The translations under genes were made by a program, and so were the position numbers. Shown here piece after piece: positions 11,481-58,820 of a DNA stretch of 64,000 nucleotides. The notes below the pieces were generated by a model. The model saw nothing but the letters and a program-made list of their open reading frames with translations, did no database searches and was not told the origin of the DNA. Numbering within the stretch: the first letter of the stretch is position 1; each line of letters starts with the position of its first letter. Source of the stretch: Candidatus Woesebacteria bacterium RBG_13_46_13 (GTDB lineage Bacteria; Patescibacteriota; Microgenomatia; UBA8517); assembly GCA_001791995.1 (NCBI GenBank), contig MGFR01000002.1, positions 36,457 through 100,456 on the forward strand, in the 5' to 3' direction.

Positions 11481-12095
11481 CTAGACTTTGGCTATTTGCA
11501 AGAAGTCCAGCTCAACCGGGGTTTCCCGGCCGAAAATCGAAACCAATACTTTTACCTTGCCTTTTTCTTCGTCAATCTCGTGAATGGTTCCCAAGAAGTC
11601 CGCGAACGGTCCGTCGGTAATTTTGATAGCCTCACCCACGGAGAACTTGGTTTTAAATCTCGGGGCCGGGGCCGAGATGAACTTTTGAATATTGGTAACT
11701 TCTTCATCCGAAAGGGGAGTCGGGGCATTTCCCGCTCCAACGAATCCTGTTATTCCCGGAGTTGTTCTTACTGCCAGCCAGGTGGGGTCATCCAAAATCA
11801 TCTTGACCAAAAGGTATCCCGGGAATATTTTTTCCTTGACGGTGGCTTTTCTGCCGCCTCTGATCACAACCCTATCCTGGGTGGCAACCAAGAGTTCGAA
11901 GATTTTTCCCTGGAGACTCATCGTTTCGACTCTTTGTCTTAAGGTTTCCGAAACCCTGGCCTCATGCCCGGAGGCGGTGTGAACCACATACCATCTGGCT
12001 TTGGGGTCGGTTGTTTCGGAAATGACGATATGGCCGGGAATTTTTTTCTTCCCGGTTCCGCGCTCATCGACTGCAACAGGAGTGTCTTTATCCAT
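11481..12095 (-). CDS. nusG: Transcription termination/antitermination factor NusG
   Basis: WYVVHTASGHEARVSETLRQR... is the NGN domain. The C-terminal KOW (GEAIKITDGPFADFLGTIHEIDEEKGKVKVLVSIFGRETPVELDFLQI) and the position between secE and rplK also fit. Confidence 0.9.
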   Translation of the reverse strand: MDKDTPVAVDERGTGKKKIPGHIVISETTDPKARWYVVHTASGHEARVSETLRQRVETMSLQGKIFELLVATQDRVVIRGGRKATVKEKIFPGYLLVKMILDDPTWLAVRTTPGITGFVGAGNAPTPLSDEEVTNIQKFISAPAPRFKTKFSVGEAIKITDGPFADFLGTIHEIDEEKGKVKVLVSIFGRETPVELDFLQIAKV

Positions 12096-12280
12096 TAACG
12101 ATTGAAAAGAAGACCCAGAGCCTTAGTAAAGATAAAATCGAGCCCTCCAAGATAAATTGCCACAATTAGCGAGATAGAAAAAACTACTAGCGTAAGTCTG
12201 ACTACCTCTTGCCGTTTTGGCCAAGTTACTTTGGAGAGTTCTCCTCTTACTTCGGAAAAAAACCCCAGAACCTTCTCCAC
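12095..12280 (-). CDS. secE: Preprotein translocase subunit SecE
   Basis: 61 aa with the SEVRGELSKVTWPKRQEV motif followed by a single TM helix. Immediately upstream of nusG. Confidence 0.8.
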   Translation of the reverse strand: MEKVLGFFSEVRGELSKVTWPKRQEVVRLTLVVFSISLIVAIYLGGLDFIFTKALGLLFNR

Positions 12281-12320
12281 GCTGAAAATTGTAACAAATT
12301 GATTTATAATTGTCTACTTT

Positions 12321-13571
12321 ATGAGAGACAAAGAGCGCAGTCGTCCTGGCGTCCCGGACATTCCCGGACTTCATAAAGGTAGGATTGAAGCCCAGAGGGA
12401 AGTATGGGCTTCTCGAAGAAGGGTGGGTTTCCCCGACAGGCGGGCGGACCTTTTCGTGATTGCCAAAGACGACGAATATTTTTTGGATTTGCCCTACTTG
12501 GCGATCCCCGGAAGGGATGACCTGCCGAGTCTATCCTCCTGGGTTCCCCGGGTGCAATCAATAACAGGAGCAATATTTACCACACGCTGGGTAGATGTTG
12601 CCCCGGACTCTTCTTTGGATGAGGTTCTTCCGCTGGGCGGCCGTTATCTTATTGAAGGCAAAATTTCCCCGAAAATCGCCAAGGCCGCCAAAATCTCGAG
12701 ACTTGTTCCACAGGAAATATTCGGGGGCTTGCCGGCAGCCATGAGACAGCAGGAAGAAATTGCCCACGACCTGGGGGTTAACAAGGGGGTGGAGCAAAGA
12801 AGAATCGAATCGGTTTTGGTAGGAATTCACGGTTTAACCGAGACGCTCTTGGAAGGAGACATTACCGAAATGACTCTGCAAAAAATGGCGAAAGAGACGG
12901 AAAAAATTCTGAGGCATGAGAACTTGTTAAAATCCAAAGATGCCATCTGGAGCAAGGTGGTGGATTACACGCTCCGCGCAGCCAAAAAGGATAGACTCAA
13001 TAGAACCAACCCGACGGCATCGCGGATTCTGGCCCGGGCTGCTTATCTGAGGGTTGTCGACTTGGAACTTTTGCTACGGGAGGCCCGACAAAAAGCAGTG
13101 AGAACTTTTGAGTATTTGGAAACGGTTAATGTTGCCTCCCGTCTGGCTTTTGAAGATGCACTCCAAGCTCTTGCAGAGGCTGAGAAAAGAATCGAAGCCT
13201 CTGGTGGTTATCTGGTAAACGGTACCCACACCCACCTGATGGCCAGAGAGTCGTGGGAGATAGAAGGAATAGTCCGCGGCGTAGCAGATAATGTTTTGGA
13301 GCCAATACAGGCAGCTCCTTACTTAGGGGTGGCTGCTTTGGCACGGGCGGTACTTACTGGAGTCAGGTATAAATCCCGGGAGGGTATCAGCCAGCTAAGA
13401 GAAGTTTTGCGCTATGTGGGTTTAGAGAAGGAGCTGGATAAAGCCTCGGTAGCGGATTATCTGATTCTGCGCTACGGAACCCCAGCCGTTCGCCGGCTGC
13501 ATCACGCCCAGACTCTGTTGGGGATGGCGCTGGCTGACCCAGACTACAAAGAGACAGCCGTTTTTAAATGA
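12321..13571 (+). CDS. Hypothetical protein (416 aa, largely alpha-helical, no recognisable family)
   Basis: Long ORF with good coding continuity. Stop overlaps the rnhB start (ATGA). Confidence 0.5.
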   Translation: MRDKERSRPGVPDIPGLHKGRIEAQREVWASRRRVGFPDRRADLFVIAKDDEYFLDLPYLAIPGRDDLPSLSSWVPRVQSITGAIFTTRWVDVAPDSSLDEVLPLGGRYLIEGKISPKIAKAAKISRLVPQEIFGGLPAAMRQQEEIAHDLGVNKGVEQRRIESVLVGIHGLTETLLEGDITEMTLQKMAKETEKILRHENLLKSKDAIWSKVVDYTLRAAKKDRLNRTNPTASRILARAAYLRVVDLELLLREARQKAVRTFEYLETVNVASRLAFEDALQALAEAEKRIEASGGYLVNGTHTHLMARESWEIEGIVRGVADNVLEPIQAAPYLGVAALARAVLTGVRYKSREGISQLREVLRYVGLEKELDKASVADYLILRYGTPAVRRLHHAQTLLGMALADPDYKETAVFK

Positions 13572-19424: not shown

Positions 19425-20321
19425 TTATCTTCGGGAACGAACAAGAAACGCAATTGATGCCAGCAAGAGTATTCCTGCTGATGCAATTATTGCGGCGGAC
19501 TTAAAAGGTGAGCTTGGGGTTGGGGGAGTTATTGTGACTTCGCGGGTTATCTTTTCAGAGACGGTTGGCGTCGGGGAGGAGGTTATAACTGGCTTTTGTG
19601 TCGGAGTGGGTGAGTTTACGGCAAGAGCGGCTTTTGCCGATAATTCATTAGAGATCGGTCCAAGGGTGCACCCGTTTCCCGGAATCACTATAAAATAGTA
19701 AATTACACCGGTACCAAGACTTCCTACCGTATACGAGGTGGTGTTTGCTCCTCCAACGTTGGGGTTGCCAAAAATATAAGTTCCCTTTTTCGTTCCGTAA
19801 TAAACGGTATAAAAAGTTACAGGGTCGGTTGCCTTCGTCCAGGTGAGTTTGATCTGGGAATTAGATATCGGAGTTGCCGAGACAAGTTTAGGAGGGCCAC
19901 CCGGGGCGGCGTCGGTGCAGGTGGTGGAATAAAAAGTCACGTGTCCGATTCCCGGGAGGGCAACGTTCTGGGTTTTATCGACGATATCGAGCGAATCGAC
20001 TCCTTCCTTGGTCGATTTGATGTAAAAAACTGCCTTACCCGAGCTATCGAGCTTGTTTGATTCAGGAGCGACTATAGCCGAGGGATCATCTGTCACCACA
20101 ACGCTTACTTCCTCTCCTGCCAGGGGAGTGCCGTAGGCATCCTTCACAGTAACGGTTAATACCGCCTCGGTTTTCCCATCGGCCGGTACTCTATCGGAGC
20201 CGGACATCGTAGCTACGATACTGGAACTATGAAAATCAGGAGAATTGTAAGCTGCCGTCCATTTGGAAAAAGCAAAAAAGAAAGCAAGAAAAAGAAAGGC
20301 TATTAATAATATTTTTCTCAT
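19425..20321 (-). CDS. Secreted/cell-surface protein with Ig-like/FN3-like beta domains and C-terminal TM anchor
   Basis: N-terminal signal (MRKILLIAFLFLAFFFAFS). Beta-rich repeats (TVTVKDAYGTPLAGEEVSVVVTD; KLTWTKATDPVTFYTVYYG is FN3-like). C-terminal SAAIIASAGILLLASIAFLVRSRR anchor. Confidence 0.5.
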   Translation of the reverse strand: MRKILLIAFLFLAFFFAFSKWTAAYNSPDFHSSSIVATMSGSDRVPADGKTEAVLTVTVKDAYGTPLAGEEVSVVVTDDPSAIVAPESNKLDSSGKAVFYIKSTKEGVDSLDIVDKTQNVALPGIGHVTFYSTTCTDAAPGGPPKLVSATPISNSQIKLTWTKATDPVTFYTVYYGTKKGTYIFGNPNVGGANTTSYTVGSLGTGVIYYFIVIPGNGCTLGPISNELSAKAALAVNSPTPTQKPVITSSPTPTVSEKITREVTITPPTPSSPFKSAAIIASAGILLLASIAFLVRSRR

Positions 20322-20385
20322 ATATTTATTATAGACAGGTACCCTGAGAGGGTGAAGTATTGAAGGCAGTAATTCTGAAGTTGGC

Positions 20386-20482
20386 AGGCCTTAGTATCCG
20401 AACTTCGAACAATTTGGCACGAAGTGAGCTCGTTTGACATAAACAAAATGCGAGGATTTATAAATCCTCACCCAGTTTTTGC
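20386..20482. repeat. Island intergenic repeat, full copy 1 (core A ACTTCGAACAATTTGGCAC, core B AATCCTCACCCAG)
   Basis: About 80% identical to 22264-22362. Core B lies about 60 nt upstream of the start of the 20538 gene. Confidence 0.6.
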
Positions 20483-20537
20483 TTAAAGATATAAATTGCA
20501 TTAGAATCGCCTGGCTAGTAAATTAAAAAAAGAGCGT

Positions 20538-21194
20538 ATGAAAGCCATTTTGGGAAGAAACAAACAACTTATGGATGTTTTTCTAGATTTAGACCCACTA
20601 CCTGTCAATAATACTGATGAGGAAGTCGGTAGGAGTTTTTTATTTAGATTTCGACCTAATTTAGCAAACATTGGAAAACGAACGAAGCAAATAAAAAGGA
20701 TTGGGATGGCATACGATACCCCAAGTGTTGCGATGTACGATCAAGCAAAAGATCTTTATAGTCTCGGATATTTTGTCTCTTCAATAATAGTTTGTAGGTC
20801 TACTGCAGAATATTTGGCGTTTGAGATATTTCTTGAGGAGGTTGAGCTGGAAGGTAAAACGGAGATTATAGAGTCAGTAGCGGAGAGTTTAGATTTTAGA
20901 AAAGTAGTTAACGAGTTTCTTTATAATCCAAAAAAAGGTTTTGCGTATATTAACAAGGACACGCACGACATATTTAATAATCTTTATTCATTGGCTAACA
21001 ATTGGGTTCATCCTAGAAAGATCAAGGATAAGGTTAAAATCGAAAAAGTTGCATTTAAGTCACTGGAAATGCTAGGTTCTTTACTTTCATCTCTTCGAGA
21101 TGTGATGAAAGATTATAAAGTTGTTAAAGGTTCACTAGTAAGGAAAGCTACTGCAAGAAAGAAAGTTAGGCCAATTATTTTGGGACACAAGTAA
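20538..21194 (+). CDS. Hypothetical protein (AT-rich island)
   Basis: 218 aa ORF in a low-GC segment, no family recognised. Confidence 0.45.
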   Translation: MKAILGRNKQLMDVFLDLDPLPVNNTDEEVGRSFLFRFRPNLANIGKRTKQIKRIGMAYDTPSVAMYDQAKDLYSLGYFVSSIIVCRSTAEYLAFEIFLEEVELEGKTEIIESVAESLDFRKVVNEFLYNPKKGFAYINKDTHDIFNNLYSLANNWVHPRKIKDKVKIEKVAFKSLEMLGSLLSSLRDVMKDYKVVKGSLVRKATARKKVRPIILGHK

Positions 21195-21204
21195 ACAGAA
21201 TAAG

Positions 21205-22197
21205 TTAGAGCCCGAGGAGAAGCAGCTTACTTGGATCTAATTGTTCAACAAAATGATATTCCCCAGTTTTTCCGTCCTTCAGCTTATATGTAATTTTTTC
21301 GGAATTACGAACAGTCATTGAACCCAACATTACAATTTTGCCATCAATTATGGTCCCTATATGTCCGGTTGGGAATAATAGACCGTTTTGACTAACAATT
21401 GCGGCCAAAATGTGACCTCCAACGGTTGCAAACTTGTATTTTATGCTCTCTTTGTTTACGAAGCTCATCAATGTTTCGGCATCCTTGTACATTACCGACT
21501 CCAAGTTCACCGCATTTCTTTCCCCGAATTCAAGCTCTGAAAGTAAAAGGGGTGGGACAACGACCGTTACAGACTTTTGATTTGGATGAAAAGCGACATA
21601 AGAATACAAAGGCACCTCATTTTTTACAAAAGTACAGTTCCTAACATCAATTTCCAGCGTAATCATTCTCGTTTGGGGATAGTCTATTTCAACATACATA
21701 CCTTTTGTTAATTGGCCGTTATTTTTTGACATTGCATTTACAAGACCATCAATTATGTCCTGGTCGATTGATTGGTGCATATGGGTGCCTTCACCCCTCG
21801 CTTTTAAGGGATTAGACATATTGTTTCCTAGAATTGAGCTTTCTATGGTTTGCTTTTTAGTTGGGTTAAAACCTGCGATTATGAGGGCGACATTTCCATA
21901 CCTTCCTGTCGAATTGACGTATTCACTTATTATAGTTTTTAGATCAGTGTCAATAATACTTTCGAGCTCATCAAAAGAAGAACTCTCTTTAATTTTAGAT
22001 TTGAGGTCATTTAGTATAAAAGAAGCAGGGGCAGCGTCTCCGGCTTCAAGAGCATCGATTTGATGGTTGAGCACGAATGCTTTTATCAAATCATCATCAT
22101 ATTTATCTGGTCTACCATCCGAGTATCGAGTTGTGGCTCTAGTATCAGAAACAAGAAACATTTTCTTGGCCAGATGAACCCCCAGAATCAGTGACAT
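21205..22197 (-). CDS. Hypothetical protein (AT-rich island); N-terminus uncertain
   Basis: The track ORF runs to 22311 but its 5' end overlaps the conserved intergenic repeat. An internal Met (MSLILGV... or MFLVSD...) is more likely the start. Confidence 0.4.
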   Translation of the reverse strand: MSLILGVHLAKKMFLVSDTRATTRYSDGRPDKYDDDLIKAFVLNHQIDALEAGDAAPASFILNDLKSKIKESSSFDELESIIDTDLKTIISEYVNSTGRYGNVALIIAGFNPTKKQTIESSILGNNMSNPLKARGEGTHMHQSIDQDIIDGLVNAMSKNNGQLTKGMYVEIDYPQTRMITLEIDVRNCTFVKNEVPLYSYVAFHPNQKSVTVVVPPLLLSELEFGERNAVNLESVMYKDAETLMSFVNKESIKYKFATVGGHILAAIVSQNGLLFPTGHIGTIIDGKIVMLGSMTVRNSEKITYKLKDGKTGEYHFVEQLDPSKLLLLGL

Positions 22198-22263
22198 TTG
22201 ACAGATTATAGCATTCCAAATTAAGCACGGGGGACGAGGACTACGTACACTGAATGTGAGGGC

Positions 22264-22362
22264 GGGCCTTAGTATATCAACTTCGAACAATTTGGCACAA
22301 GATGAGCTCATTTGATGTAGATAAAGTCCAACAATTTCTTAATCCTCAACCAGCAATTGCTT
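22264..22362. repeat. Island intergenic repeat, full copy 2
   Basis: GGCCTTAGTATATCAACTTCGAACAATTTGGCACAAGATGAGCTCATTTGATG...TTTCTTAATCCTCAACCAGC. Core B is 48 nt upstream of the 22401 gene. Confidence 0.6.
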
Positions 22363-22400
22363 ACAATTAACCGGCAATATAGAATTTAGGCATCGCTAAA

Positions 22401-22793
22401 ATGAAAAGATTGTCCCCAAATGAAAAATGGAACAGATTTAATAAAAAACTAGAGGAGTTGATGAAATCGAATGATTTTTATGGTTTGGGAGTAATTTATC
22501 AGGAAATGGCCAACTTCTTAAATAATGAAGGGAAAGATTCCAAAGAAATGCTTAATAAAGCCCATGAGATGAAGCTCACACATCACAGAAATTATATAAA
22601 GAATTTACGATACGATTCTCCAATCTGTGTAGGGGTTGAGGTTCGTTGCACAGATGATAGTTGTAGAAGCTGTAAAAGCTTGCAAGGTAAAGTTTTTGAT
22701 TTTGATAAAGCCATAGAGACAAATCCTTTACCTGTTAGAAATTGTAGCCATGAATATGGTTGCAGGTGTGTTTATCTTCCTGTAGCTAATTGA
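22401..22793 (+). CDS. Hypothetical protein with Cys-rich C-terminus (possible zinc ribbon)
   Basis: 130 aa; the C-terminal segment ...CVGVEVRCTDDSCRSCKSLQGKV...CSHEYGCRCVYLP carries several Cys pairs. Confidence 0.45.
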   Translation: MKRLSPNEKWNRFNKKLEELMKSNDFYGLGVIYQEMANFLNNEGKDSKEMLNKAHEMKLTHHRNYIKNLRYDSPICVGVEVRCTDDSCRSCKSLQGKVFDFDKAIETNPLPVRNCSHEYGCRCVYLPVAN

Positions 22794-22807
22794 GTGGAGA
22801 AAGGTCA

Positions 22808-22835
22808 AGAGTTTCTTAATCCTCGGCCAGCCTTC
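22808..22835. repeat. Island intergenic repeat, half copy (core B only: TTTCTTAATCCTCGGCCAGCC)
   Basis: 40 nt upstream of the 22869 gene. Confidence 0.5.
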
Positions 22836-22868
22836 GGTCTTACCTAATTTCTGATAAAATATGGCTGT

Positions 22869-23390
22869 ATGAAGATGGATCAGCTGATAGACAAGAAGAA
22901 GTTGAAACATCCAGACTTTTGGTTTGTTAAGGCACACGCATACGCTTCAGCATGCCTTTTTATATTAGAAGAATTTTCCAGGGCGATTAAAGACAAAGAC
23001 GGGGAGAATAGGACTAGACTAAAAGAAGTTACTCTTAGCCTCTCTTCCGTTGGGGCAACTCCCTATTTAGTCGGAATTTCTAGCGAATTGTATATGAAGG
23101 GGTACTTAATATCTAAAGGAGAAAAACCTGACGCGCTAAAGAGGGTAGGTCACAACTTAAAAACCATTAGAGAAAAATGTGCAACTTTTGGAGACCCGAG
23201 GTTTAATGATAAAGACCTAATCTTTCTTGCCGATACTCTTGGCAAATATTTGATGGAGGATGGGGGAGTTAGATATCCAGATAAAAATGACTTACCTATT
23301 TATATACCAATTTTTAAAAACATTTTAAATATGTTTCATAAATTAAGTATTGAAGTGTCAGACACCCCTGCTAAAGGAGAAGATACTTGA
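22869..23390 (+). CDS. Hypothetical protein (AT-rich island)
   Basis: 173 aa, predicted helical, no confident family. Confidence 0.45.
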   Translation: MKMDQLIDKKKLKHPDFWFVKAHAYASACLFILEEFSRAIKDKDGENRTRLKEVTLSLSSVGATPYLVGISSELYMKGYLISKGEKPDALKRVGHNLKTIREKCATFGDPRFNDKDLIFLADTLGKYLMEDGGVRYPDKNDLPIYIPIFKNILNMFHKLSIEVSDTPAKGEDT

Positions 23391-23392
23391 TT

Positions 23393-23440
23393 TAAATAGT
23401 TCCACTTCGAACAATCTGGTGCAGGATAAGCCTTGAGATG
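23393..23440. repeat. Island intergenic repeat, half copy (core A-like: CACTTCGAACAATCTGGTGCAGGATAAGCC)
   Basis: Similar to the first half of the full copies. Confidence 0.45.
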
Positions 23441-23579
23441 GGGAAGATACAATAATTTCTAGGTTCAACATATGTTTCAATAACGATAACCAGCAACTAA
23501 ACTGGGTGAAATTCAAATATTTATTTCAAATGGAACCAATGTTTTTTCAAGTTATGATAAATCTTTATAGACTAGATAT

Positions 23580-24497
23580 TTAATATTTCTTAAAATCAGT
23601 AAGTCTTTCAAAAATCTTTTCCATAGCCTCAGCAAAAGTACCAGAAATAGGAATAGTATTTCCGCTCCTGCCAGAACTAGTATTCCATTCTTCAAACTTT
23701 TGTTTATCACCCACATAGAAAATGTTCGCATGGGTTTCTCTTAGAGGATCCCATATATGATAATCTTGTGGGTAAGGCTTTACTCCCACAATTATTACTT
23801 GTTTTACATTGAGTATTAGATTTTTCCACTCCTTTTGGATATGCTCAATAAAATCAAAACCTAATGGAGCCGGTTTATTCTCTGTAAAAAGAGCCATTAC
23901 TGGATACAAAGGGGTATCACTAGTTAATTTTTCAGTTACTTTTTCGGGGGTGTTTAGTGAGTATATTGGCGCTTTTATTCGCATATCTGAACTAAAATTG
24001 ACATACCTATTCATTCCCTCAAAATCGAGGAACCAGTTGCATGAACCATGAAGTTTTATAAGTAATATACCTCCTTTATTGGGGGGAATAAGATAATTTG
24101 TTTTAAAACCATTTCTAGTAAGTTCTCCGTCAAGCAAGCAATCATAATTAAGTGTTGATAGTATTGTGTCATCGCTTTTTATCTTAATAAGATATTTAAT
24201 AATCTCACCATATCGGGTTTCATTTTTTGGAGTGAATCTATTAAAGTAAATACCTAATTGTTGGAGCAATAAAGAAGATATATCGCTGTGTTTTTTCCAT
24301 AATGAGTCCATACCTTTTTCAAAATTTTGCAAAAATAAAGTATTGAGATCTTCTGGCAGCTTTCCCCAGGTGTCCGGAAACGTAGAAACTAATATAGAGT
24401 GAAGTTCTCCTCCCAATGGAGGTTGATGGGGAAAAATGTCCCCGCAGTCATGACTTGCACCAGCACCAAATAAAAATACGGTATTAATCTTACCCAT
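23580..24497 (-). CDS. SIR2-like domain protein (SIR2_2 / DUF4020-type NAD-binding fold), standalone
   Basis: N-terminal VFLFGAGASHDCGDIFP matches the SIR2_2 signature (LFxGAGxS...G.P), and LIKLHGSCNW supplies the HGS motif. 305 aa, no fused effector or sensor domains. Confidence 0.6.
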   Translation of the reverse strand: MGKINTVFLFGAGASHDCGDIFPHQPPLGGELHSILVSTFPDTWGKLPEDLNTLFLQNFEKGMDSLWKKHSDISSLLLQQLGIYFNRFTPKNETRYGEIIKYLIKIKSDDTILSTLNYDCLLDGELTRNGFKTNYLIPPNKGGILLIKLHGSCNWFLDFEGMNRYVNFSSDMRIKAPIYSLNTPEKVTEKLTSDTPLYPVMALFTENKPAPLGFDFIEHIQKEWKNLILNVKQVIIVGVKPYPQDYHIWDPLRETHANIFYVGDKQKFEEWNTSSGRSGNTIPISGTFAEAMEKIFERLTDFKKY

Positions 24498-24675
24498 TTT
24501 AAGCCCGCCTCGTTCATCAAGTATCCAGGTACATGTCCAAATACCATGGAAATCTACTTAAAATTCTCTTCGCCCTTGACTTTTCTATATAATATCACTT
24601 GAGGCTAGCAGGGGCTAGAAACTATGTAGGGAACTTTTTCAAGGTTGAATTTCACCAAGTTGATATGATTTATTA

Positions 24676-24906
24676 ATGAAGTGCTATTATATGAGTAAGA
24701 TGAAAAAGGAATCTGTAATAGGAATCCTAATATTGTTGGGTTTGGTTTATTGGTTTGCGATTAGACCATCAAACATAAGAAGCCATTGTCACAATCTTGC
24801 TGATGAAAACGCAAGAATTTGGGCAACGTCGGTAAAGGATGGTAAGGAAAGTGAAATATATGACCGTTCACTGGAAAAGTGCATCAATGAAAAAGGATTG
24901 AGGTAA
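24676..24906 (+). CDS. Small secreted/membrane-anchored protein
   Basis: 76 aa with an N-terminal hydrophobic segment (SVIGILILLGLVYWFAI) and two Cys. Confidence 0.3.
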   Translation: MKCYYMSKMKKESVIGILILLGLVYWFAIRPSNIRSHCHNLADENARIWATSVKDGKESEIYDRSLEKCINEKGLR

Positions 24907-25021
24907 GAGGCTTCATCCGCCCAGATAAGAAACTTCTATTATCTAAAAGCACCACCTTCGGGTATGCACCGTAGTATAATTATCTTGTAGGTAAAGAGAG
25001 TTCTCTAAGTAAAAGAAGGGA

Positions 25022-25237
25022 TTGAGGATGATCGGTACTAAAGTTATCTTAACAGTATTATTTAATGTTGCGGGTATTGTAATTATCGCTTGGGGTATGT
25101 TCAACGACAAAATTTGGGTTATGGCAGTCGGCGGTGCGCTTACGGGCATAGTAATTGGGCTTATGTACGACGACTTGTTAGGTCAGATTAGGGATGTGAA
25201 GATTGACGAAGAAGAGGAAGAAGAGGAGGACCAGTGA
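25022..25237 (+). CDS. Small 2-TM membrane protein with poly-Glu C-terminal tail
   Basis: 71 aa; ...KIDEEEEEEEDQ. Confidence 0.35.
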   Translation: MRMIGTKVILTVLFNVAGIVIIAWGMFNDKIWVMAVGGALTGIVIGLMYDDLLGQIRDVKIDEEEEEEEDQ

Positions 25238-25247
25238 GGAGCTACCA

Positions 25248-25451
25248 ATGAAAGAGGATGAAATTAAAAAAGAAAAAAAGAAGTTAAATAAGTATTTTAT
25301 ATTCTTTTTGATATCTACGGTTGGGTCAATGGTTCTCGGAGATGATAGCCAACTAGGTATGATATTTTCGGCGTTATCACTCATTTCTTTAATTGTTTTA
25401 ATTGCAAAAGGGGTTGACTACAAGAGGAAAGTTAACGAAATAAAAAAGTAG
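25248..25451 (+). CDS. Small membrane protein (start uncertain; track ORF begins at 25203)
   Basis: A lysine-rich N-terminus followed by two hydrophobic helices. Confidence 0.3.
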   Translation: MKEDEIKKEKKKLNKYFIFFLISTVGSMVLGDDSQLGMIFSALSLISLIVLIAKGVDYKRKVNEIKK

Positions 25452-25456
25452 TCCTG

Positions 25457-25527
25457 CAGGGGCGGAGAGAATCGAACTCCCATTGCGGGTTTTGGAGACC
25501 CGCGTCCTACCATTGAACGACGCCCCT
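25457..25527 (-). tRNA. trnW: tRNA-Trp (anticodon CCA)
   Basis: Reverse complement: AGGGGCG TC GTTCAATGGTAGGAC G CGGGT CTCCAAA ACCCG CAAT GGGAG TTCGATT CTCTC CGCCCCT G. The acceptor stem pairs, the anticodon loop is CU-CCA-AA, and the T-loop is TTCGATT. Confidence 0.85.
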
Positions 25528-25565
25528 AGACAAGCGCAATTATACCAATTTTTGGGTTTGGATGC

Positions 25566-25742
25566 TTATTTCAGCTTCGAGGATTCTTTATGGGGGGTAA
25601 CCTTCCGGCAGGTTCTGCAGTACTTGTTAAGCAGCAGCTTCTTTTCTTCCATGTTGATCTTGTTCCTTTCGGTAAGATAGTTCTGGTTCTTACAGACGGA
25701 ACAAAGCAAGGCTACATGTTCTCGCGCACCTTTTTTTGCCAT
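25566..25742 (-). CDS. rpmG: 50S ribosomal protein L33
   Basis: Manual translation gives MAKKGAREHVALLCSVCKNQNYLTERNKINMEEKKLLLNKYCRTCRKVTPHKESSKLK, 58 aa, with the CxxC...CxxC L33 zinc ribbon. Missing from the ORF track (under 60 aa). Confidence 0.8.
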   Translation of the reverse strand: MAKKGAREHVALLCSVCKNQNYLTERNKINMEEKKLLLNKYCRTCRKVTPHKESSKLK

Positions 25743-25784
25743 ACGTTGCGTATTTTACCTAAAGCAGGCTCTCTAAACAATAGG

Positions 25785-25856
25785 GAGCCGAGGGTGGGAA
25801 TCGGACCCACGACCTAGTCATTACCAATGACTTGCTCTACCACTGAGCCACCTCGG
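25785..25856 (-). tRNA. tRNA-Thr (anticodon GGT)
   Basis: Reverse complement: GCCGAGG TG GCTCAGTGGTAGAGC A AGTCA TTGGTAA TGACT AGGTC GTGGG TTCGATT CCCAC CCTCGGC T. Acceptor and anticodon stems pair; anticodon GGT. Confidence 0.85.
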
Positions 25857-26009
25857 CGCATGAGAATTATATCAAAAACTTGCTATACTCAAAGAAATGA
25901 GCCGTACCCAAGCCCTGCTTCTGATTCTTGCCGCAGCCTTCTTTATTGTCCTGATCTACGTTGTCAGCCACCTTACGGCCTTTGGCCCTTCGGGAGTCTT
26001 CAAATAGGG

Positions 26010-26094
26010 TGCTGGGACTAGGATTCGAACCTAGGTAGGCCTTTCGACCGCCAGATTTACAGTCTGGTGCGATTGTCCGCTCCGCCATCCCAGC
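26010..26094 (-). tRNA. tRNA-Tyr (anticodon GTA, long variable arm)
   Basis: Reverse complement: GCTGGGA TG GCGGAGCGGACAATCGC ACCAGA CTGTAAA TCTGG CGGTCGAAAGGCCTACC TAGG TTCGAAT CCTAG TCCCAGC A, a type II tRNA. Confidence 0.85.
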
Positions 26095-26095
26095 T

Positions 26096-26170
26096 TGGAG
26101 CCGACGAGTGGATTCGAACCACTGACTTGCTGTTTACAAAACAGCTACTCTACCGCTGAGTTACGCCGGC
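26096..26170 (-). tRNA. tRNA-Thr (anticodon TGT), CCA encoded
   Basis: Reverse complement: GCCGGCG TA ACTCAGCGGTAGAGT A GCTGT TTTGTAA ACAGC AAGTC AGTGG TTCGAAT CCACT CGTCGGC T CCA. Confidence 0.85.
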
Positions 26171-56665: not shown

Positions 56666-57054
56666 GTAATATGACAGAAACTGTAAGAGAAACTGTAACG
56701 ACTCGAGACGATAGCCCGGCGACTTCGGTTAAAGCGGGGGCAACCGGTACCCAAACAGTGCAACGTTTAGTCTATTTTCTATTCGGAATACTAGAGATAC
56801 TCCTGGCTTTCCGTTTAATCTTTAAGTTAGCAGGCGCAAGTTACGGAGGTGCCTTTGTGGGTTTCATTTATAGCGTGACCCGAATATTTATCTTGCCCTT
56901 TGGTGGAATATTCCGTCAGGCTACTGCTCCCGGAGCAGAAACTGCCGCAATTCTTGAACCGGCGACATTGGTTGCCATTATTGTCTACGCTGTTTTGGCT
57001 TGGGGCATTGTGGCTTTAGTCAAGATACTTTCAGGCGAACAGCAAACAGATTAG
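56662..57054 (+). CDS. YggT-family membrane protein
   Basis: ...LLAFRLIFKL...GFIYSVTRIFILPFGGIF... is YGGT-like. Overlaps the RHH gene stop (GTGAGTAATATG). Confidence 0.5.
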   Translation: MSNMTETVRETVTTRDDSPATSVKAGATGTQTVQRLVYFLFGILEILLAFRLIFKLAGASYGGAFVGFIYSVTRIFILPFGGIFRQATAPGAETAAILEPATLVAIIVYAVLAWGIVALVKILSGEQQTD

Positions 57055-57082
57055 ACTAATTTATAGAGGGGGGTGAAGAAAT

Positions 57083-57325
57083 ATTAATATTATTATTTAT
57101 TGGGCCATCTTTGGACTTATTGCAGGTGCAATTGCCAATTTTATTGCACCCAGCTCAAAGGGGGGCATTATCGGATCAATAGTTTTGGGTGTTATTGGGG
57201 CTATAGTGGGAGGATACTTGGGACGAATGCTTTTTGGCGTTGGGGTAACTGGGTTTAACCTAACATCCTTTATTGTGGCGGTTGCCGGATCACTACTTGT
57301 GATTTTTGTAGGTAGACTGCTTTAA
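57083..57325 (+). CDS. GlsB/YeaQ/YmgE-family (transglycosylase-associated) small membrane protein; no canonical start codon
   Basis: The frame translates ...IIIYWAIFGLIAGAIANFIAPSSKGGIIGSIVLGVIGAIVGGYLGRMLFGVGVTGFNLTSFIVAVAGSLLVIFVGRLL*. The conserved N-terminal helix has no in-frame ATG/GTG/TTG after the TGA at 57074. A strong SD (AGAGGGGGG) sits 9-10 nt before an ATT at 57083. Confidence 0.5.
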   Translation: MNIIIYWAIFGLIAGAIANFIAPSSKGGIIGSIVLGVIGAIVGGYLGRMLFGVGVTGFNLTSFIVAVAGSLLVIFVGRLL

Positions 57326-57338
57326 ATGAGGATTAAAT

Positions 57339-57863
57339 ATGAGTATTAAGATTCGTAATCAAAGCGGGAGCGTGACTCTTTGGCCGGAAAAGCTTAGTGT
57401 ACAGAAAGAAGAGATTAAAGCTGTAGATAAACAAAAAAGAGCGGACGTGAGAGCCGTTGCAAAATTGGTTAAAAAATCCAATAGAATACTACTTAGCATT
57501 TCTTCGCATGCATTTCCATTTGATTTATTTCCCGACACCATAAACGTTGAGGAAGGAAGAATCACTATTATCACCCGTACTTTTTTCCTTTCTGCTCGGG
57601 TACACAGTGTCGATATCAAAGACGTCTCAAATATCTTTGTCAATGTCGCACCTTTCTTTGCTCAGCTGGTTATCATTTCAAAAACATTTGAAGAAAATGA
57701 AGTACGAATAAAAAATTTGAGAAAAGACGAGGCAGTTTTTGCCAGAAGAATCATCGAGGGGTTACGGATCTTTGAAAATAAACGAATAGACACCTCCAAC
57801 TATACAGTGAAAGAACTTGTGGCCAAACTTCAGGAATTAAGCACGACAGAAATTGTAACGTAA
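57339..57863 (+). CDS. Hypothetical protein
   Basis: 174 aa ORF. Confidence 0.45.
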   Translation: MSIKIRNQSGSVTLWPEKLSVQKEEIKAVDKQKRADVRAVAKLVKKSNRILLSISSHAFPFDLFPDTINVEEGRITIITRTFFLSARVHSVDIKDVSNIFVNVAPFFAQLVIISKTFEENEVRIKNLRKDEAVFARRIIEGLRIFENKRIDTSNYTVKELVAKLQELSTTEIVT

Positions 57864-57902
57864 CTATTTATTTTTACACCCGAATGTTAGAATGGCTTCA
57901 TT

Positions 57903-58820
57903 GTGGGCCTTTCTGTTGGAATAGTTGGATTACCAAACGCAGGGAAATCCACGCTTTTTAATGCACTCGCCTCCAGGCGCTTGGCTGAGACCGCACCTAG
58001 GCCATTTACTACAATCGAGCCCCATGAGGCGGTGGTTGAGGTCCCCGATGATAAATTAAAAAAACTTTCGGATTTGGTTAAACCCGACACTGCTATTCCC
58101 GCAAGCGTAACCTTTATTGATATAGCAGGATTAGTCAGGGGAGCGCACAAAGGGGAGGGACTTGGAAATCAGTTTTTGGGACGCATCAGGGAAGTAGATG
58201 CCGTTATCCATGTAGTTCGTGCATTCGAGGACCCGGGGGTTGCTCATCAGCATCCCTCCCACGAACCTGGTTCAATCGATCAAATATTGGAAGACATAGA
58301 AATTGTGAACATAGAGCTAGAACTTGGAGGGATTTCTGGAAAACCGATCATCTACGTTCTTAACGTAGACGAGGGGGATTTAAACAATATGGAATTTATC
58401 TCCCGGGTTGAGGAGAAATTCAAAGAAAAAGCTTTGCTTATTTCAGCAAAATTGGAGGAAGAATTTATAGACCTTACTAAAGAGGAAAAGGCAGCATACA
58501 TGGGGAGTATCAGACCAGGCCTTGATAGACTTATTCTTTATGCGTATGAACTTTTGGGTCTTATCACTTTCTACACAATTAAGGGAGGGAAAGAGGTTCG
58601 TGCATGGAGTATCAAAAGGGGAGCAGCGGCAGTCGACGCGGCCGGGGTTGTACACACGGATTTTGCCAAAGGATTTATAAAGGCGGAGGTAATTAATATT
58701 GATGAACTCTTGGGTTTAGGAGGATGGAAGGAGGCGAAAGAGAAGGGAAAGGTAAGACTTGAGGGAAGGGATTATCAAGTTAACGACGGAGACGTAATTG
58801 AATTTAGGGTTGGAGTTTGA
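57903..58820 (+). CDS. ychF: Ribosome-binding ATPase YchF (Obg family, compact)
   Basis: GIVGLPNAGKSTLFNAL is G1. The C-terminal TGS-like end is ...VRLEGRDYQVNDGDVIEFRVGV. Confidence 0.85.
   Translation: MGLSVGIVGLPNAGKSTLFNALASRRLAETAPRPFTTIEPHEAVVEVPDDKLKKLSDLVKPDTAIPASVTFIDIAGLVRGAHKGEGLGNQFLGRIREVDAVIHVVRAFEDPGVAHQHPSHEPGSIDQILEDIEIVNIELELGGISGKPIIYVLNVDEGDLNNMEFISRVEEKFKEKALLISAKLEEEFIDLTKEEKAAYMGSIRPGLDRLILYAYELLGLITFYTIKGGKEVRAWSIKRGAAAVDAAGVVHTDFAKGFIKAEVINIDELLGLGGWKEAKEKGKVRLEGRDYQVNDGDVIEFRVGV

Follow-up and report, generated by a model that had tools for sequence, protein, structure and literature searches.

The question raised by this locus is how a block of AT-rich DNA of about 5.1 kb came to lie against the 3' end of a tRNA-Trp gene in Candidatus Woesebacteria bacterium RBG_13_46_13. 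The window, i.e. the whole stretch of DNA that was analysed, is 64,000 nt long (assembly GCA_001791995.1, contig MGFR01000002.1, positions 36,457 to 100,456 of the forward strand) and the block, hereafter the island, runs from 20330 to 25456. A previous reading of the bare sequence (the original prediction) had called it a candidate defence or mobile island. Our answer is that the segment from 20.32 to 25.46 kb is probably, with a fair margin for doubt, a relic stack of small integrative elements that large serine recombinases (LSRs) inserted at the tRNA-Trp 3' end and whose recombinase genes have since been lost.

Foreign DNA past tRNA-Trp

The composition of the island sets it apart. Its GC content is 0.3645, versus a mean of 0.477 (standard deviation 0.013, minimum 0.443) for the 5.1-kb segments of the remaining DNA, which gives a z score of -8.6. 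The island genes are lettered A to H from left to right; the GC at third codon positions (GC3) of genes A to F is 0.27-0.38 versus 0.44-0.62 across 17 neighbouring genes. The edges are sharp: the 300-bp GC profile shifts within ~150 bp at ~20250 and at ~25350, with a gene for a Big_1 protein at the left edge and the tRNA-Trp 3' end at the right edge. There, only 4 nt separate the stop codon of gene H from the tRNA 3' end, and the tRNA is intact, in keeping with the Islander signature of tRNA-targeting islands. Two more GC dips are present in the window, at 1-1000 (0.41) and 57001-58000 (0.40).

Synteny was assessed with 80 loci from other species, gathered around an M50 protease gene whose product is 45-72% identical to that of the window. 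Shared between the window and this set are rpmG (34 loci), nusG, rnhB and gmd; no relative of any of the proteins A to H is found in the 80 loci. How the tRNAs are spaced, and what DNA lies past tRNA-Trp, varies widely among the fetched loci (given below as L numbers). In a close relative, L121 (M50 76%, rpmG 79%, tRNA-Trp 100% and Big_1 protein 68% identical), only ~1.7 kb separate tRNA-Trp from the Big_1 gene, and the intervening content is unrelated to the island. Because genes A to H are absent from the 80 loci and the L121 gap is short and unrelated, the 5.1-kb island is accessory and lineage-specific. The two marks of a genomic island, foreign composition and absence from relatives, are therefore both present. 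A SIR2-like protein identical to that of gene E is on record in Candidatus Woesebacteria bacterium RBG_19FT_COMBO_47_8, and the gene order of the island is matched on contig MGGA01000037.1 of GCA_001792165.1.

The AT-richness announced by the original prediction was thus confirmed, and so was its broader proposal of foreign accessory DNA at the tRNA-Trp 3' end without an integrase, which is supported by the composition, by L121, by the junction relics described below and by the absence from the 80 loci, in none of which the same genes occupy the same place. The contrary reading is that of a native, vertically inherited variable region, in which fast-evolving and weakly expressed genes have drifted towards a low GC content and the repeats act as regulatory sites specific to the lineage. 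Genomes of the Candidate Phyla Radiation (CPR) contain many orphan genes, and comparable arrays in other genomes are just slightly under their flanks in GC, which would suit that reading. We nevertheless regard it as very improbable, given the z score of -8.6 with its sharp edges, the lack of any shared content in the close relatives L121 and L117, and the finding of relatives of proteins E and B in mobile elements and defence islands of unrelated taxa.

Junction repeats and serine recombinases

A repeat search and nhmmer, both run on the 64 kb, revealed a family of repeats of ~105 nt, with three full copies and one half copy, all on the plus strand and all inside the island. Nothing comparable exists elsewhere in the window, as the original prediction had stated. 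We refer to these repeats as junctions. The first, R1 (20384..20486; repeat match 20379-20497), is of the long type: it consists of a GCAGG core followed by a 33-codon tail frame (QALVSELRTIWHEVSSFDINKMRGFINPHPVFA, then a stop), and, 62 nt from the start codon of the Big_1 gene, it forms the island's left edge. The second long-type copy, R2 (22261..22369; repeat match 22257-22377), has a GCGGG core and the tail frame RALVYQLRTIWHKMSSFDVDKVQQFLNPQPAIAYN, also closed by a stop, and is 85-87% identical to copies in L115, L117 and L121. R1 and R2 are well conserved; both are without a start codon and have a stop 2-3 codons upstream. A half junction (22794..22847; repeat match 22790-22836, E 7.5e-4) begins immediately past the stop codon of gene C and contains the 3' half of the long type only (VEKGQEFLNPRPAFGLT, then a stop); with the sequence downstream (22806-22862) it is a 79% match to L115. 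R3 (23391..23503; repeat match 23386-23495) is a degenerate long type, with its core lost, a 3-nt gap and a premature stop in the tail frame.

A second, short type of junction has the form TTTTGCAGGGGC-TAGTAAACTTTGTCAGGAACTT, the left half, TTTTGCAGGGGC, being common to the tRNA end. The window copy (GCAGGGGCTAGAAACTATGTAGGGAACTTTTT, plus strand) is at 24608..24639; the same motif (GCAGGGGCTAGTAAACTTTGTCAGGAACTT) occurs in 6-7 co-oriented copies in the L006 and L108 arrays, and short junctions are also found in L004, L009 and L121. Together, the junctions of the window delimit five modules, which contain genes A and B, gene C, gene D, gene E, and genes F, G and H, respectively. Gene E is bracketed by a 17-nt inverted repeat (left arm 23500..23516, right arm 24645..24661; 94% complementary). 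Because the arms look like the short-junction motif, the reverse-oriented gene E segment may have been inverted in the past.

How do the junctions relate to the tRNA? The original prediction had suggested looking for a direct repeat of the tRNA-Trp 3' end near the left edge of the island. No long repeat of it exists in the island: no match exceeds 8 nt and the best one, 16/25, is nothing above chance (shuffled sequences: mean 14.6, maximum 17). This chance-level 25-nt match, together with an Rfam scan of the window that found just the four tRNAs and no family for the junction, ruled out the idea that the repeat is a displaced tRNA fragment. Only GCAGG(GGC), i.e. 5-8 nt of the tRNA end, recurs at the junctions.

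The same junction is present in ~45 other Microgenomates contigs. With nhmmer, matches were obtained in L005, L006, L020, L026 and L031, each in the variable DNA past tRNA-Trp; with a degenerate 35-nt pattern, the junction was found in 41 metagenome contigs (~1 chance match is estimated from the information content of the pattern) and in no viral contig. In all of the 26 loci that hold both a junction and tRNA-Trp, every copy is downstream of the tRNA, at 0.3-5.5 kb, and convergent with it. A further example, L137, has three junction copies in an 11-kb array. The junctions start with GCAGG(C/G)(C/G), i.e. the final bases of tRNA-Trp in reverse complement; the GCAGG core is common to the tRNA end and to the junctions as a class, R2 and R3 being the departures from it described above. 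Duplication extends further in two genomes: in L123, the 28 nt left of the junction duplicate the 28 nt abutting tRNA-Trp, and in L099 ~69 nt of the tRNA flank recur 2.6 kb into the array. The arrays thus have the layout [core + junction body][cargo], repeated, and then [core][tRNA-Trp], which is the pattern expected of repeated site-specific insertion at the tRNA end. In L107 (3257-3486, oriented coordinates), three perfect tandem 77-nt units abut the tRNA-Trp 3' end; they may be genuine or have arisen in assembly.

One frame of the junction evolves in the manner of coding DNA. In that frame, the synonymous fraction of single-difference codons is 0.46, versus 0.17-0.34 in the other five; column entropy increases from codon position 2 to position 1 to position 3, and amino acids are replaced in a protein-like manner (I/V/L/M, D/E, K/R). 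As a peptide, the consensus reads QALVxxLRTIWHEISSFDIEKIQEFLNPQPA; a few more residues and a stop come after it. This peptide has no match in Pfam or the PDB, and its profile, run against 5.8e9 proteins, gave 12 matches only, all of 37-76 aa, so that the repeat is not a fragment of a larger protein family. A structured-RNA or attC-like reading was also rejected: single copies fold no better than shuffles and alifold on 42 copies pairs nothing on either strand.

Could the junction then simply be a gene for a small protein (MQALV..LRTIWHEISSF.., ~36-40 aa) together with the promoter region, a module by which accessory neighbours are driven or regulated, in arrays that grow by duplication and homologous recombination? 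Several features point that way: the protein-like conservation, a start codon (ATG, TTG or GTG) right before the Q codon in about half of the copies, the 12 such open reading frames (ORFs) annotated in public data, and a -35/-10-like motif with an ORF start after many copies. We give this possibility little credence. R1 and R2 are conserved in spite of their lack of a start codon and of the stop just upstream; the first bases of the junction coincide with the tRNA-Trp 3' end, whose flank is duplicated in L123 and L099; the frame is that in which recombinase genes are read through into the tRNA (see below); the strict position and orientation relative to tRNA-Trp are left unexplained; and a promoter and terminator scan of the island shows no enrichment over shuffles.

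As the original prediction noted, no integrase or transposase is visible in the window: phmmer with three recombinase queries returned nothing there. An on-board integrase, which belongs to the Islander signature, is thus missing from the window; at the same site, L112 and L022 do have serine recombinases. Neither a motif scan nor phmmer turned up a tyrosine recombinase in any locus. The LSRs of the relatives are proteins of 464-544 aa with Resolvase, Recombinase and Zn_ribbon_recom domains (L112, L022, L013). In L112 and L022 their genes adjoin tRNA-Trp; in L013, L051 and L007 they adjoin tRNA-Tyr. Since in these last three genomes the LSR genes have their ends within the tRNA-Tyr(GTA) 3' end (L013 11756-13390, L051 15026-16420, L007 1550-2635; all on the minus strand in locus coordinates), tRNA-Tyr, a neighbour of tRNA-Trp in the same tRNA cluster, is a second target of this recombinase family. 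All five LSR ORFs run antisense into the tRNA and stop 10-22 codons inside it. The core is read as ..N-W-Q-G.. by the L112 LSR and as ..L-T-L-Q-G.. by the L022 LSR, which is the CAG frame of the junction peptide, and a junction copy in L117 reads ..L-T-L-Q-A-L-V.., in the same CAG frame as the LSR read-through. The same frame and the same core suggest that the junction could be an arm of the attachment site carried by the element (attP).

L112 offers a complete-looking unit of 5.5 kb, composed of a long junction, a methyltransferase gene, a gene for a DUF4365 protein, an HTH_36/DnaD-like gene, the LSR gene and tRNA-Trp; no empty-site comparator for it exists among the fetched loci, and its recombinase has no match in the viral collection. 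A phage origin was rejected: neither the junction pattern nor the L112 recombinase matched the viral collection, and PHROGs gave one weak match, to gene C.

The mechanism that we propose is as follows. Small elements would have been inserted one by one at the tRNA-Trp 3' end by LSRs, the tRNA end (GCAGGGGC on the plus strand) serving as the presumed core of the bacterial attachment site, attB. The attP site would be placed inside the LSR gene, at the 3' end, with the junction body as the distal arm of attP and the crossover in or near GCAGG. Integration would thus swap the last ~33 codons of the LSR, those for the consensus peptide given above, for a short tRNA-antisense tail; the displaced tail-coding piece would stay behind as the far-end junction, and the excised form would encode the C-terminal tail of the LSR. 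Repeated integrations beside the tRNA, followed by deletions, would have led to the five cargo modules. Putting attP in the LSR gene would account together for the coding-like conservation, the absence of start codons, the fixed orientation and the position exclusively past tRNA-Trp; that the peptide occurs in no annotated large protein is also as expected if integration splits the tail off. The modules of the window are either deletion remnants or cassettes moved in trans.

Several observations weigh against this scheme. The 64-kb window has no LSR or other recombinase, and the link to LSRs comes from two relatives. No LSR with the full QALV tail was found among the 5.8e9 proteins, and no circular form was seen, with no match in viral contigs or the protein database. 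The modules, at 0.5-1.9 kb, are too small for an LSR, so that one has to invoke either large deletions or mobilisation in trans. The left flanks of the window junctions do not duplicate the tRNA flank, L136 has a junction and no tRNA-Trp within 10 kb, and the start codons right before Q also fit an independent small gene. Two further points bear on defence: PADLOC gives no significant defence match in the island (the best SIR2 match, for E, is at E 0.0036) and the arrays of other genomes carry mostly ordinary accessory enzymes.

Another explanation is an integron-like platform at the tRNA-Trp end, on which non-autonomous cassettes of one to a few genes, each with a core and a junction, are captured in trans by a serine recombinase encoded elsewhere; the modules would then not descend from elements that were once autonomous. 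It accounts well for the modules of 0.4-1.9 kb in the window, L006 and L108, for arrays with 6-7 co-oriented junctions, for ORFs that tightly abut junctions on both sides, for one cassette gene (a 94-aa ORF) found at different array positions in L104, L120, L121 and L125, and for the presence of a recombinase in just 2 of the 26 arrays holding tRNA-Trp. We consider it unlikely all the same: no recombinase is conserved beside the platform, whereas intI adjoins attI in integrons; the junctions have no attC-like hairpin; L112 resembles an ordinary autonomous element with the same junction; and no excised cassette circles were seen. The stepwise insertion of LSR elements, followed by loss of the recombinases, remains the reading that we favour.

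Cargo genes and neighbourhood

All the ORFs listed in the original prediction are present, including the start of the gene at 21205, placed at 22197 as proposed (the homologue alignment begins MSLILGVHL). To call their products lineage-orphan was an overstatement: E has 64 relatives, B has 15 and D has 39 (cluster representatives), and C has one, 74% identical, in L115.

Gene E (23580..24497, minus strand) encodes a SIR2-fold protein of 305 aa. The label 'SIR2_2-type' fails for E itself, which has no Pfam match (E<=0.1), and is recovered by the family profile and the fold. In a family of 56 sequences, GAGAS at 11-15, N117 (N117-Y118) and H150-G151 are invariant, and 19 of the 56 relatives match PF13289 (E<=0.01). 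E is without the sirtuin zinc module and without a sensor domain. The family profile matches a SIR2-like protein in the PDB (8w9l, E 4.7e-6). The AlphaFold2 model has a predicted local distance difference test score (pLDDT) of 95.8; among its Foldseek matches, the SIR2 subunit of E. coli SIR2-HerA (8sub_K, E 6.6e-8) comes first, followed by sirtuins and SIR2-STAND, and the best 50 of 67 PDB matches (E<=1e-3) are all sirtuins or defence SIR2 proteins.

Relatives of E are scattered (a Hodarchaeales archaeon, Raoultella, various metagenomes) and have as their surroundings: Shedu, Kiwa and an IS481 element in L089; a primase-bearing mobile element in L087; a restriction-modification pair upstream and a NERD gene downstream in L135; an AAA_21 ATPase in L086; and in L134 (7095-8891; Raoultella sp., GCA_042055345.1) a CAP12/PCTIR TIR-domain gene that ends 43 nt upstream, at the tail end of a prophage. 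This last TIR and SIR2 pair is Thoeris-like, but with a minimal SIR2 lacking the SLOG domain. No partner of E is conserved across the seven genomic contexts, and none of the HerA, ThsB/TIR, pAgo, STAND or SLOG partners or sensors is found in the window, the Raoultella relative being the only one with an adjacent TIR gene.

E shares with the SIR2 proteins of defence systems (SIR2-HerA, Thoeris ThsA, DSR1/2, SIR2-STAND/Avs5, SPARSA) the Rossmann fold, the GAGxS loop and the catalytic Asn and His; the closest structure among them is that of SIR2-HerA, and its relatives occur in defence islands. Unlike these named systems, it is free-standing, only 305 aa long, without a sensor or partner domain, and below all PADLOC and Pfam thresholds. 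Judging from sequence and model, E is most likely a minimal NAD+-consuming SIR2 effector of the defence type. The family, a minimal free-standing SIR2 found among defence genes, could thus represent a single-gene, NAD-depleting defence.

Gene D (22869..23390, plus strand) encodes a HEPN-fold protein of 173 aa, with the four-helix up-down arrangement of that fold; of its 39 relatives (cluster representatives), 9/34 match Pfam HEPN. The Rx4-6H RNase motif is not evident in the family: H95 is the only invariant residue, and the nearest arginine, R92 (Rx2H), is not conserved. Gene A (20538..21194, plus strand; 218 aa, GC3 0.29) has no match in Pfam, PADLOC, NCBIfam or PHROGs and no relative in 120 loci; the idea that it is a second HEPN protein was dropped after a negative hhalign comparison with the HEPN family of D.

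Of the original 'defence or mobile island', the mobile part is supported and the defence part is suggestive only, through the contexts of the E relatives and the HEPN fold of D. PADLOC recognised no system in the island proteins: known defence systems were set aside, since PADLOC returned sub-significant SIR2 matches only and NCBIfam nothing useful. The cargo of other arrays consists mainly of NUDIX, methyltransferase, dehydrogenase and similar genes, and for this reason the tRNA-Trp site is not specifically a defence hotspot. For two cargo genes, E and D, a defence role is plausible, and through them the island may contribute to conflict with phages or mobile elements.

The remaining cargo is more diverse. 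Gene B (21205..22197, minus strand; 330 aa) encodes a putative proteasome-like Ntn-hydrolase domain with a C-terminal extension; B itself scores 19.7 bits against Pfam PF00227, below the 22.4-bit cutoff. The family is rare (15 members, 7 of which have a precomputed PF00227 match); Ser2, D18 and K39 are invariant, and the protein starts with Met-Ser instead of a Thr nucleophile. Its profile reaches proteasome alpha subunits in the PDB only at E 0.009, and residues 235-281, in the C-terminal part, weakly match (E 0.004) African swine fever virus I73R, a winged-helix protein that binds Z-nucleic acid. A homologue of B (L090 6001-6990) is cargo of a serine-recombinase element with an RT-Mrr gene and, at its end, a tRNA-like 3' fragment.

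Gene C (22401..22793, plus strand; 130 aa) has a Cys-rich C-terminus with a weak, sub-threshold likeness to the end of the phage Mu F / SPP1 gp7 domain. Its relative, in the same kind of array in L115, is 79% identical in DNA and 74% in protein. There (L115 1003-4529) it comes fifth in an operon-like run of genes that follows one long junction, a run that also carries an alpha/beta hydrolase gene and an EamA transporter gene; because the relative of C is part of such a run, cargo genes appear to move between arrays within larger blocks. The last three genes, all on the plus strand, encode small membrane proteins: F (24676..24906; 76 aa) has no family match in Pfam, PADLOC or NCBIfam and is called as a gene in GCA_001792165.1, G (25022..25237; 71 aa) has an acidic tail, and H (25203..25451) is 82 aa long.

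To the right of the island, the minus strand from 25456 to 26170 carries, in order of reading, tRNA-Thr, tRNA-Tyr, tRNA-Thr, rpmG and tRNA-Trp, so that rpmG and the Thr/Tyr/Thr tRNAs are 5' of tRNA-Trp. The latter, tRNA-Trp(CCA), occupies 25456..25527 on the minus strand (ARAGORN; Rfam 60.6 bits). Beyond the tRNA cluster are the genes for the M50 protease and L28, and fmt. The spacers of the Thr-Tyr-Thr-rpmG-Trp cluster range from <100 nt to 7 kb across species (L004-L083), and their inserts include GIY-YIG genes and a recurrent ~300-aa gene between tRNA-Tyr and tRNA-Thr(GGT). The whole tRNA cluster is an insertion hotspot.

To the left, the island is flanked by the gene for a Big_1/fn3 surface protein (19425-20321, minus strand), which is followed, leftward, by genes for a 105-aa membrane protein (TM105), a C39 peptidase, a ddl-like ATP-grasp protein and a CARDB protein. 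Between the CARDB gene and secE are p182, gmd, the S21 gene, rnhB and the gene for a conserved 416-aa protein (p416). This last gene (12321-13571, plus strand), between rnhB and secE, has no Pfam match, and its position is kept in L004 and L006. On the minus strand, secE is at ~12098-12283, ~8 kb left of the island, and nusG at 11481-12095, with the L11 gene beyond. The original prediction had taken tRNA-Trp and secE as the flanks of the island, which is wrong: about 10 native genes of normal GC (8 kb) separate secE from 20330. That the island 'sits between' the two holds only loosely and not as an adjacency, native genes already separating them in this lineage; the interposed S21, rnhB and 416-aa protein genes are also present in the relatives' loci.

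Comparison with known systems

The island in itself is an ordinary kind of object. What appears to be new, as far as our literature search shows, is the junction family, together with its connection to serine recombinases that target tRNAs in CPR bacteria: no paper was found that links Woesebacteria with tRNA-Trp islands, and a study of horizontal gene transfer in Patescibacteria reports genomic islands in general terms only. CPR bacteria (Patescibacteria) have tiny genomes, are uncultured, and their gene flow is poorly understood; the locus points to a recurrent and precisely placed site of gene acquisition in an entire class of these bacteria, with the junction as a sequence marker for finding further arrays.

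A more ambitious proposal, which we think improbable, is that the tRNA-Trp (and tRNA-Tyr) 3' end of Woesebacteria and related Microgenomates would be a capture platform for LSRs with a 33-residue C-terminal tail spanning attP, that the tail would be swapped on integration, and that, thanks to the regenerated cores, tiny recombinase-less cassettes would be stacked there and exchanged in trans. If this were true, the swap would give a different form of the enzyme and could set the directionality or the stability of integration without a separate directionality factor, and ultra-small CPR bacteria would have an integron-like mode of gene capture that relies on a serine recombinase and a tRNA gene. 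Compact and site-specific, tRNA-targeting serine integrases with attP in their own reading frame, as suggested here, would also be of interest to genome engineers.

How does the locus compare with systems already described? With tRNA-targeting islands and their tandem arrays, as collected by Islander and TIGER (PMC4383910, PMC7192596), it shares insertion at the tRNA 3' end, an intact tRNA, foreign composition and variable cargo. In such tandem arrays, as would be the case here, the crossover core is regenerated at both ends, which allows further stacking and recombination within the array (PMC4383910, PMC7192596). The island lacks two classical features, a long repeat of a tRNA fragment and an on-board integrase: the recombinase of the relatives is an LSR, the tRNA segment involved is ~5-8 nt plus flank, and the array of the window has no integrase.

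The proposed split gene recalls the phages with integration-dependent immunity, such as mycobacteriophage BPs, where attP is in the repressor gene, integration alters the C-terminus of the repressor and the integrase is a tyrosine recombinase (PMC4557955, PMC3694055). Common to both would be an attP inside a coding gene and different protein forms made in the integrated and excised states; unlike in those phages, the split gene would here be that of the serine recombinase itself, any regulatory consequence being conjecture. With mobile and sedentary integrons, finally, the locus has in common co-oriented and mostly single-gene modules, a recurring site, and orphan or accessory cargo including toxin- and defence-type genes. 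It differs from them in having no intI beside the array (the neighbours being rpmG, tRNA genes and the genes for the M50 protease and the Big_1 protein) and a tRNA gene as its anchor; and its junctions, unlike attC hairpins, are conserved in sequence, coding-like and unstructured.

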